From an uncultured Bacilli bacterium (lineage in GTDB: Bacteria > Bacillota_I > Bacilli_A > RF39 > UBA660): DNA of 64,000 nucleotides. The stretch is taken from contig CALVIX010000005.1 of NCBI GenBank assembly GCA_944331895.1, positions 42,214-106,213 on the forward strand. The letters run 5' to 3'. Both the position numbers and the translations under genes were made by a program. Under the pieces are notes generated by a model, which did not search any database, had not been told where the DNA came from, and saw only the letters and a list, made by a program, of their open reading frames with translations. Positions within the stretch are counted from its first letter, which is position 1; each line of letters starts with the position of its first letter. Positions 32,108 to 34,411 of the stretch are shown here, piece after piece.

Positions 32108-34411
32108 GTGAAAAGAGAACAAGGGTTTACATTAGTAGAACTAATTGCAGTCATTGTCGTGCTTGCTGTATTGACCATCATTGTTGTACCAATCGTAATT
32201 AAACAAGTAACGTCATCGAAAAACAATTTGTATCTAAAACAAGTAGATTTAATTGAAAAAGCATCACAGAGTTGGGGGAATGAAAACGGGAATTTGCTCC
32301 CGGGGACAGCAGAAGAATTTGTATACCTCAGTATTGATGAATTAAATGAAGGGGGATATATCGATCGTGACAACGTCAAAGATCCACGAGATGGATCTCG
32401 AATGAATGGTTGCGTCGTTATTTCCTATAGTGAATTATATCATCAAAATATATATAAATATAAAGAAAAACCATGTAGTGAATTAAATCCAGGAGGACTT
32501 CCAACGATTGTAGCAAAAGGAGGAAATCCACAAGGAGTAGAAGTAAACACAACTTACGTATTACCCGAAGTAACAGCAACATCAGAAGATGGGACTCCAT
32601 TAAATGTAGAAGGACCAATTATCCGAGATAAGAATAATAAAGTAGTAGAAAAAGTAAGTACAGAGAAAATAAGAGATACGTTTAAACTGACATATCGTGC
32701 AATGGATAAAGCGAGTGGAAAAGAAGCAGAGAAAAATATCAATGTTAAAGTCATCGATACGATCGCACCAGTAATCGAGGTAAACGGAAGAAAGTCTAGT
32801 CATACGATTACACATGAAATTGGAAAAACTTTCAAAGTACCAACACCAACGGTTACAGATAACAGTAAACTAGAGTGTAAGAATGACTCGGATAGCAAAT
32901 GTCATTGGAAGGTGACATCTAATGTCAACCCAAAAATTGTAGGAACATATAAGGTAACATATACAGCAACAGATGATGGAGAAGATATGTCTGGACCAAA
33001 TCCAAATACGACAGTCTATATATTAACAGTAAAAGTTGTAGATTTAACAGTTCCGGCAATCAAAGAGATTGTTCCAGATATCACTGAATGGACGAATAAG
33101 AACGTTACACTTACGATCATTCCAGAAGATAACGATGAAAAATTACAGTATTCATTCGATGATGGAAAGACATGGCAAGATAGTGATAAAAAGACATTTA
33201 CAAGTAACCAGACGGTTACTGCGAGAGTAAAAGATTCAAGTGGAAATGTATCAGAATCAAAATCATATACGATTACGAATATCGATAAGATACCACCTAC
33301 ATGTAAAACTTCTATTAACTATGGTGGAAGAACAGTTACATCTGGTGGCTGGGTGAATGCATCACAGGCTAAGGTCACCACTTCTAGTCCGATCATTATC
33401 AACGGAACATGTAGTGACCAAGGAGGAAGTCAGTGCGTTAGTAATGTAAGTGATAAAGTAACGGGAGAAACCAAGGGAACGACGATTAGTCCAGGTACAG
33501 TAAAAGATCATGCAGGAAATACTACAAAATGTTCATCTGTTACAATTAAAGTAGACCAGACAAACCCTACTTGTACGGTTACGACTACTCATACTGGATG
33601 GACGAATACTGATGTAACGATTACAGGTACATGTAATGACAGTGGATCTGGATGTGTAGATCATGTAAAACAAACTTATACGAAAGATACGAATGCCGAA
33701 TATTCACCAGGTGTTGTAAAAGATCATGCTGCGAACCAAACAACCTGTTCAGAAATCGGTGTTTATATTGATAAGACGCCGCCAGCTTGTCCTCGAATAG
33801 AAAGATCACACCCGGCAGGAACGACAACTTCCGCTACTGTATCATTCGAGATTATTCCAACTTCTGATACAGATTCATGGAACTGGTATACAAATCAAAT
33901 AGGTGAAGCATGGCACGATTGGGGAAGAGTAACGGGAACACAAACGAAAACGTTGTCGCCAATCACAGGATTACGTACAAGACGCGGAAAAGTAGTTGTA
34001 CGAGATAGTGTAGGAAATGAAGATACATGTGAGACAGGAGATTATTATTTGGAAAGTTGTAGTGCAAGTAATCCAACGGGATGTCCAATACAATATGTAT
34101 GTCGTAATCAACAGCTAGATGGTGCAGGAGGAATGGCACATCCTGGTTATACCGATATGCACGATGGACCAAACTTGGCAAATACTGCAAATCAGTTAAT
34201 AACAGGGACAACGGTATATGTTATTAGCACTGTCAATTCAGAATGGTATTACATCTATACTTCTTCTATAGCTATATTGAACCCATATTATAATGGAGCG
34301 TACCATACTGTTGCTACTAACAGTGATAAATATGGATATATCAAGAAGGGTTGTTTGCAAAGTACGTATCCAGAAAATAAGTCATGTCCAGCGTCTCGTT
34401 GTATAGGTTAA
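32108..34411 (+). CDS. 767-aa modular type IV pilin-like protein (pilin head + Ig-like modules + Cys-rich repeats + SH3b-like C-terminus)
   Basis: GTG start. Class III signal MKREQG|FTLVELIAVIVVL. LSIDELNEGGYID..DP pseudopilin segment. Two DUF5011-like modules (..GTYKVTYTATDD..VKVVD). WTNKNVTLTI..YSFDDGKTWQ module. Two PTC..GW.N..I.GTC.D.GS.CV..SPG.VKDHA.N.T.CS repeats. MHDGPNLANTANQLITGTTVYVISTVNSEWYYIYT SH3b-like end. Confidence 0.8.
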   Translation: MKREQGFTLVELIAVIVVLAVLTIIVVPIVIKQVTSSKNNLYLKQVDLIEKASQSWGNENGNLLPGTAEEFVYLSIDELNEGGYIDRDNVKDPRDGSRMNGCVVISYSELYHQNIYKYKEKPCSELNPGGLPTIVAKGGNPQGVEVNTTYVLPEVTATSEDGTPLNVEGPIIRDKNNKVVEKVSTEKIRDTFKLTYRAMDKASGKEAEKNINVKVIDTIAPVIEVNGRKSSHTITHEIGKTFKVPTPTVTDNSKLECKNDSDSKCHWKVTSNVNPKIVGTYKVTYTATDDGEDMSGPNPNTTVYILTVKVVDLTVPAIKEIVPDITEWTNKNVTLTIIPEDNDEKLQYSFDDGKTWQDSDKKTFTSNQTVTARVKDSSGNVSESKSYTITNIDKIPPTCKTSINYGGRTVTSGGWVNASQAKVTTSSPIIINGTCSDQGGSQCVSNVSDKVTGETKGTTISPGTVKDHAGNTTKCSSVTIKVDQTNPTCTVTTTHTGWTNTDVTITGTCNDSGSGCVDHVKQTYTKDTNAEYSPGVVKDHAANQTTCSEIGVYIDKTPPACPRIERSHPAGTTTSATVSFEIIPTSDTDSWNWYTNQIGEAWHDWGRVTGTQTKTLSPITGLRTRRGKVVVRDSVGNEDTCETGDYYLESCSASNPTGCPIQYVCRNQQLDGAGGMAHPGYTDMHDGPNLANTANQLITGTTVYVISTVNSEWYYIYTSSIAILNPYYNGAYHTVATNSDKYGYIKKGCLQSTYPENKSCPASRCIG

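Follow-up and report, generated by a model that had tools for sequence, protein, structure and literature searches.

What is a 767-residue protein with a prepilin signal doing in a gene that stands alone among housekeeping genes? The gene in question lies in an uncultured Bacilli bacterium of order RF39 (assembly GCA_944331895.1), in a stretch of 64,000 nucleotides (nt) that covers positions 42,214 to 106,213 of contig CALVIX010000005.1; this whole stretch is the window to which the coordinates below refer. A sequence-only reading of the window had proposed a modular type IV pilin of 767 amino acids (aa), and the position and length of the open reading frame (ORF; Table 1) are borne out, with GTG as its start codon. 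The reading that we favour, at a probability of roughly 0.6, is that the protein is a modular type IV pilin processed by a prepilin peptidase (PilD), which would be of low abundance, probably located at the tip, and would use a filament of small same-head pilins, whose assembly genes lie elsewhere, to display a binding module that is diversifying. Good support for calling it a modular type IV pilin comes from the motif, from the model of the head, from profile matches to solved pilins and from conservation of the motif across the family.

Prepilin signal and pilin head

The N-terminus reads MKREQG followed by FTLVELIAVIVVL, a prepilin motif that places Glu at +5 of the mature protein. As a class III signal (MKREQG followed by FTLVELIAVIVVLAVLTIIVVP) it combines a short basic leader ending in Gly with a hydrophobic stretch that contains Glu5, the features by which type IV pilins are recognised, and it also has Pro22. 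It scores above the curated cut-offs of both Pfam N_methyl (PF07963; 27.1 bits against 21.2) and TIGR02532 (21.0 against 16.3), in agreement with the canonical signal described in the sequence-only reading. In type IV pilins, Glu5 and Pro22 have a role in filament assembly rather than in plain anchoring. With Bact_surface_Ig-like/DUF5011 and further modules behind an N-terminal IPR012902/N_methyl region, the protein has the composition by which modular pilins are defined, namely that motif together with one or more added domains of no specific pilus function (PMC8179133).

From an alignment of 27 sequences, AlphaFold2 gave a confident model of residues 1-142 (predicted local distance difference test score, pLDDT, 88.7), in which a helix of 51 residues (9-59) precedes strands at 71-75, 102-108 and 113-119, as in the topology of pilins, with disorder from about residue 130. 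This corresponds to a head of about 125 aa, close to the 120 aa of pseudopilin-like sequence noticed before. The 27-sequence profile of the head matches 20 distinct solved pilins and pseudopilins at E values of 4e-14 to 2e-4, mainly over alpha1, and these include PilE1 of Streptococcus sanguinis (8pfb, E 9e-12), GspG, MshA, Neisseria PilE and geopilin.

At E<=1e-3 the window protein has 99 homologues, most of them 500-1,255 aa long. The N-terminal module is found in 85, every one of which keeps Gly/Ala at -1, Phe/Tyr at +1 and Glu at +5 despite 20-40% identity elsewhere, while the remaining 14 were matched through immunoglobulin-like (Ig) modules only. That Glu5 and the cleavage site are conserved throughout the family speaks against the N-terminus being a mere anchor or a relic. 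The name given to an orthologue by the Prokaryotic Genome Annotation Pipeline (PGAP) of NCBI is prepilin-type N-terminal cleavage/methylation domain protein.

The window contains a second solitary prepilin gene (Table 1), absent from the sequence-only reading. Its 210-aa product scores 30.2 bits for N_methyl and 41.6 bits for DUF5011, the latter above the PF16403 cut-off, and its head belongs to the same family as that of the giant pilin (33% identity, E 3e-19). Smaller proteins with this head also exist: pilins of 116 aa and 146 aa occur in the genomes of loci L001, L007 and L008, and a profile of the small pilins has 2,830 relatives.

Appended modules and their exchange among relatives

Behind the head stands a stalk of two Ig modules followed by four related beta-modules, two of which are four-Cys repeats, and the protein ends in a separate tip module. 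The two Ig modules are homologous to each other (31% identity, E 1e-6), and residues 232-290 of the second match PF16403/DUF5011 just below the cut-off (24.2 bits against 27, E 3.5e-5); PF16403 likewise appears in the precomputed annotation of P0001. Beta-module 3 has matches that all lie below cut-offs, to the OmpL47-type model NF047446 (27.1 bits against 40, E 4e-6), to CHB_HEX_C (E 8e-4) and to BNR, and the two four-Cys repeats are 39% identical over 82 aa (E 1e-15). The division of this region in the sequence-only reading, into two DUF5011-like Ig modules, a WTN..V.L...YSFDDGKTWQ module and two Cys-rich repeats, therefore stands.

The four-Cys module has no Pfam model. It measures about 75-85 aa, occurs in more than 70 relatives in up to 8 copies per protein, and follows the rough consensus DKTxPTC...WTN...I.GTCSD.GSGC...SPGTV.D.AGN...C, which makes it a candidate new domain family. 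Beta-module 6 also has no Pfam match, and homologues of it are found in P0010, P0024, P0027 and P0032. The protein as a whole has 20 Cys, an even number that would be compatible with disulfide-stabilised extracellular modules.

The tip module (residues 641-767) is matched by no Pfam model even at E<=10 and by no PDB sequence, and a word-indexed search gave no homologue. An exhaustive HMMER search over 1.84 billion representative proteins returned three weak matches: the SH3b protein P0294, the C-terminus of the 1,063-aa prepilin P0295, and the fragment P0296. Residues 683-720 align at 45% identity with the first SH3b domain of P0294, a protein with two SH3_3 domains and NlpC/P60 (phmmer, library-wide E 1.1e-4), and hhalign of the tip against an SH3b profile gave a probability of 37%. 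A single-sequence AlphaFold2 model of residues 554-767 was unusable (pLDDT 33). The SH3b-like C-terminus first proposed thus has weak support, at the level of sequence, and we regard "SH3b-like" as a reasonable but unproven label. As the end of P0295 illustrates, other giant pilins also terminate in this tip module.

The closest relatives place the protein near Candidatus (Ca.) Fimihabitans, which belongs to GTDB order RF39, family CAG-822 (PMC8035907), and is filed by NCBI under Mycoplasmatota incertae sedis. A scan of species-representative genomes gave 7 loci in all, with homologues 94% identical over an aligned 308 aa in metagenome-assembled genomes (MAGs) of Ca. Fimihabitans intestinipullorum and of an "uncultured Tenericutes", and with more distant heads in MAGs of uncultured Bacilli. 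Proteins of Ca. Fimihabitans intestinipullorum are also members of the 90% cluster of the 210-aa paralogue and of the cluster of the 797-aa homologue P0003. The window protein itself recurs at 100% identity in independent metagenome contigs.

Comparison with these relatives reveals a mosaic. Identity is 93-97% up to residue ~480 (with P0003) or ~400 (with P0005), and it falls abruptly to <=30% past residue 560. Judged from these alignments, close relatives share a conserved proximal stalk and appear to exchange distal modules, a pattern that would be expected of an adhesin with diversifying ligand specificity. Among the Fimihabitans loci, L001/L007 and L008 (about 9,800-12,400) represent the same locus, from a sigma-factor gene to pyk, with giant pilins of 814 or 797 aa that diverge in their C-terminal parts; in L008 the small pilin next after the giant one is extended to 290 aa. 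The differences between these loci look like allelic exchange of distal modules.

Assembly machinery and rival readings

We searched for assembly genes with phmmer, using as queries Escherichia coli HofB, GspE, HofC, GspF and GspO together with PilC and PilD of the lineage, and scanned the window for motifs. Of the 10 distinct contexts of large and small pilins that were inspected, all but one are free of PilB, PilC and PilD within 10 kb. The exception is the small-pilin context of L022/L023 (P0275), where PilC and PilD lie on the same contig as the pilin in the order PilC (T2SSF), PilD, murG, murB, ftsQ, ftsA, ftsZ, lspA, rluD, rhomboid, small pilin. Beyond it come further genes and then a 417-aa modular pilin, pyk, GH31 and leuS. 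The PilC-PilD pair is ~8 kb from the small pilin, which is of the same family, and ~11 kb from the 417-aa modular pilin, and its PilD is bifunctional (A24_N_bact plus Peptidase_A24, with a GGGDIK motif). Synteny links the pyk-GH31-leuS block to the Fimihabitans locus of the 797-814-aa giant pilin (Pyk and GH31 are 54-57% identical, and the relative is a family-level one), and the 417-aa modular pilin occupies the same position upstream of pyk as the Fimihabitans giant pilin does.

A metagenome scan with the L022-type PilC gave 31 loci. PilD follows PilC in 26 of the 26 whose contig passes the end of PilC, the contigs of the other 5 ending within that gene. PilB is divergently transcribed in 7 of the 31, which represent a more distant lineage (L046, L050-L053, L055 and L056), and in 4 of them (L046, L050, L051 and L052) a modular prepilin of ~430-550 aa lies directly beside it. 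By Pfam, the L052-type cluster contains T2SSE (E 2e-130), T2SSF and Peptidase_A24, directly flanking a 539-aa pilin with N_methyl, DUF5011 and ALK_LTK_GRD. Because PilC and PilD (and PilB) of related lineages share contigs with pilins of this family, it is plausible that the machinery is encoded elsewhere in the genome studied here. The PilC proteins of L022, L039 and L045 reach an unusual length of 588-700 aa through an N-terminal extension of ~250 aa, and pilC-pilD lies directly upstream of murG-murB-ftsQ-ftsA-ftsZ.

Separation of pilin genes from such clusters is the rule in the family. Five giant homologues, and the small pilin in 3 of 5 contexts, are solitary among housekeeping genes with no machinery within 10 kb, and machinery is likewise absent within 10 kb of the 116-aa small pilin of Fimihabitans, which shares its locus with one of these giant pilins and has uvrA and unrelated genes upstream of it. 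In L019, L020 and L021 a small pilin gene (118-124 aa) lies directly downstream of dnaE, after an opposite-strand rpmB, a synteny seen in two lineages.

Processing, polymerisation, tip location and ligand, as we infer them, would be connected as follows. The class III signal would insert the precursor into the membrane, and a prepilin peptidase encoded elsewhere would remove MKREQG and methylate Phe1. The pilin module, that is, alpha1 with Glu5 and Pro22 and the small beta-sheet, would then dock into a type IV filament whose body may be built mainly from the same-head pilins of 116-146 aa scattered around these genomes. Because an appendage of ~640 aa cannot pack at every position of a filament, one would expect few copies of the giant pilin, placed at the tip or close to it. 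Its stalk of six beta-sandwich modules would there project outwards and bear, at its end, an SH3b-like binding module framed by disulfides.

Several results weigh against this modular, tip-located pilin. The window contains no homologue of PilB, PilC or PilD, as the sequence-only reading had already stated, nor do the fetched loci of the Fimihabitans genus (L001-L003, L005-L008 and L026-L029); across L001-L029 the same queries found nothing apart from L022 and L023. These negatives have a positive control, because the same queries detect machinery in relatives. Machinery in this genome is thus an extrapolation, because it was seen only in relatives that are ~55% identical in housekeeping proteins, and in the L022-type lineage PilB is absent within 10 kb of PilC-PilD. 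Cleavage, methylation and incorporation of this pilin into a filament are likewise predicted at the sequence level, for an uncultured organism. As for the lollipop fold that had been anticipated, the model has a helix and a three-stranded sheet, but a Foldseek search of the PDB with it gave no significant match (best E 1.9); a long single helix with a tiny sheet is a poor Foldseek target, and the lollipop fold is here a candidate assignment. Similarity to named pseudopilin families stays below the equivalog cut-offs of GspG (TIGR01710, 29.8 against 88.85) and ComGC (NF040999, 24.2 against 75), with alpha1 alone aligning.

The main rival, unlikely in our judgement and still the strongest of the alternatives, is a pilin-anchored surface adhesin. 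Here the head would serve only as a membrane anchor, whether processed by PilD or not, and the ~640-aa rod would span the wall and expose its tip at the surface or on a very short pseudopilus, with no long filament. It draws on the observations that the giant pilin genes examined all stand singly between housekeeping genes and far from assembly genes, that there are several such genes per genome, each with a different tip, and that PilB is missing beside PilC-PilD in the closest machinery-bearing lineage; an appendage of about seven modules would also be long enough for a Gram-positive wall. However, Gly-1, Phe+1 and Glu+5 are strictly retained, and Pro22 is frequent, in a family that is otherwise very divergent, which a mere anchor would hardly explain. 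In addition, the small pilins with the same head could form a filament body, and PilB is present in other relatives, where it adjoins modular pilins.

A component of a competence (Com) pseudopilus or of a pseudopilus like that of type II secretion systems (T2SS), rather than of an adhesive type IV pilus, is improbable. The best NCBIfam similarities of the N-terminus are indeed to GspG and ComGC, similarity in alpha1 being seen with TIGR01710 (E 5e-7) and with PDB 5wda (E 1e-8), and the small head with its three-stranded sheet is pseudopilin-like. Yet these matches cover alpha1 only and score far below the equivalog cut-offs given above, no T2SS or comG genes are nearby, and the machinery of the relatives is PilB-PilC-PilD with a bifunctional PilD and not of comG operon layout. 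GspG and ComGC also lack a counterpart to the 640-aa appendage, whose seven modules, ending in a candidate binding module, suggest adhesion.

More doubtful still is a relic pilin whose machinery was lost in a reduced genome and whose N-terminus is now an ordinary signal-anchor, or whose gene is drifting: neither ~64 kb of this genome nor ~100 kb of Fimihabitans-genus loci yielded any machinery, and RF39 genomes are described as highly reduced (PMC12306168), but the ORF is intact, lies behind a strong promoter-like site and recurs without a single difference (100% identity) in independent metagenome contigs. Orthologues in two other MAGs match its conserved part at 93-97% identity, its motif is conserved family-wide, and PilC and PilD persist in a relative within the same order.

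Genomic setting, known systems and significance

The promoter-like site in front of the pilin gene matches the consensus at 11 of 12 positions and has the TG element, so the promoter TTGACC-18-TGgTATAAT claimed for the gene is borne out as a putative site. The terminator claimed for it was a mistake. No terminator-like site follows the pilin stop codon up to 35400, the sole plus-strand hairpin is the upstream one that ends uvrC, and the next ORF begins 15 nt past the stop codon. A minus-strand terminator-like hairpin at 32287-32302, inside the pilin coding region, is most likely due to chance, because the regional count of such sites equals the shuffle expectation.

Table 1. Coordinates, within the window, of the two prepilin genes and of the signals, modules and flanking genes of the giant pilin.
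Feature	Position	Strand	Description
Second solitary prepilin gene	11064..11696	+	210 aa; head and one DUF5011 Ig; between LtaS-like gene cluster and ruvA
uvrC ORF	30163-31953	+	Flanks pilin gene upstream
Terminator-like hairpin	31968..32001	+	Of uvrC, not of pilin gene; 5' of pilin gene
Sigma-70-type promoter-like site	32052..32081	+	TTGACC 32052-57, 18-nt spacer, TGg-TATAAT; TG 32073-74, -10 32076-81
Shine-Dalgarno-like GGGAG	32100..32104	+	Just 5' of GTG start; read from sequence
Modular prepilin ORF	32108..34411	+	767 aa; GTG start; stop codon 34409-34411
Class III leader MKREQG	32108..32125	+	Predicted cleavage after Gly6
Pilin module	32126..32503	+	Residues 7 to ~132; hydrophobic alpha1N, long alpha1, small beta-sheet, Cys102/Cys123 pair
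Ig-like module 1, DUF5011-like	32513..32782	+	Residues 136-225; also in 50 relatives
Ig-like module 2, Bact_surface_Ig-like/DUF5011	32783..33061	+	Residues 226-318
Beta-module 3	33062..33292	+	Residues 319-395; WTN...YSFDDGKTWQ motif
Two four-Cys repeat modules	33293..33766	+	Residues 396-478 and 479-553
Beta-module 6	33767..34027	+	Residues 554-640; distantly related to module 3 (E 2e-5)
Cys-framed C-terminal tip module	34028..34408	+	Residues 641-767 (127 aa); SH3b-like core 683-720 (34154-34267)
245-aa protein	34427..35164	+	N-terminal membrane helix/anchor; ATG 15 nt past pilin stop
mutL	35246-37048		Flanks beyond the 245-aa ORF

Given this 15-nt gap and the lack of an intervening terminator, the pilin gene is probably the first of a small operon, and the downstream ORF is probably co-transcribed with it. 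The 245-aa product of that ORF shares its first five residues, MKREQ, with the pilin. We considered it as a conserved pilus accessory protein and rejected this idea: it matches no Pfam or NCBIfam family, was found in the same species only, and has no homologue beside other pilins.

Elsewhere in the window are gpr and spoIIP (within 15622-17758), mreC/mreD (40050-41401) and an LtaS-type enzyme (7954-9999), and from this set of genes the organism looks like a walled spore-former. The segment 15622-18092 had been suspected from its ORF sizes to be comGA-GB-GC; this was rejected, as it consists of gpr, spoIIP and an unrelated small ORF. On the plus strand at 21949-24821, a 712-aa C39-peptidase ABC exporter comes first, then a 143-aa membrane protein and a pair of small ORFs with N-termini that resemble double-glycine leaders (..SIIGG/G.. 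and ..VQIYGG/V..), and the segment is probably a class II bacteriocin export locus.

Set against known systems, the giant pilin is a new multi-module architecture within the known class of modular type IV pilins and not a new kind of system. This class was catalogued in 2021 by Raynaud et al., whose list runs to more than 1,200 proteins with 264 architectures, the longest having 860 aa (PMC8179133), so that the "few" modular pilins of the sequence-only reading are outdated. The same reading had called the protein an extreme case; with most homologues at 500-1,255 aa it is average-sized in its family and therefore not extreme, many relatives being larger than it and an 860-aa modular pilin being already in print.

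The likeness to PilB (vWA module) and PilC (lectin module) of S. sanguinis lies in a class III signal, a small pilin module and grafted non-pilus domains in a monoderm host, and in both cases low-abundance, tip-exposed adhesins would be expected. The window protein differs in having seven appended modules instead of one, no vWA or lectin module, and a Cys-framed SH3b-like tip; its gene, known here from sequence alone, is solitary between uvrC and mutL, unlike the S. sanguinis pil locus. L052-type pilins come from related uncultured gut Bacilli, the same ecological and phylogenetic neighbourhood, and share the order of prepilin motif, DUF5011-type Ig and terminal module, their Gly-rich terminal module recurring in the window-protein homologues P0031 and P0070. 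They differ by a minor-pilin-like head (NRGFTVVEL), another tip, a much shorter chain and linkage to assembly genes. In CofB of enterotoxigenic E. coli and TcpB of Vibrio cholerae a pilin module likewise precedes beta-rich domains, and both have a role in binding and in starting or capping the filament (PMC8179133). They are type IVb pilins of diderms, ~500 aa long with two extra domains, in which no sequence similarity to the window protein was detected. A literature search on RF39 or Fimihabitans in connection with pili or competence found nothing relevant.

A more speculative proposal, to which we give little probability, is that RF39 bacteria, with their reduced genomes and auxotrophies, keep solitary giant pilins with interchangeable tips as an episymbiotic or predatory device, an SH3b-like peptidoglycan-binding tip latching onto the walls of other bacteria; in a variant of it, wall-spanning adhesins in general would have recruited the pilin module as an anchor that needs no sortase. 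Saccharibacteria, which attach to their hosts in a pilus-dependent manner, offer an analogy for such wall-latching.

These observations leave the current picture of type IV pili unchanged, as both modularity and the dispersal of pilin genes had been established before. The points of note are the size and abundance of the family in reduced-genome gut Bacilli, the solitary genes, the exchange of distal tip modules and two uncharacterised, widely repeated blocks that are fit for family models, namely the four-Cys beta-module of ~80 aa and the Cys-framed SH3b-like terminal module. If the favoured reading is true, uncultured gut Bacilli of the RF39 type would devote resources to several giant pilins whose tips can be exchanged, and these proteins would be concrete candidate adhesins for organisms of unknown lifestyle.

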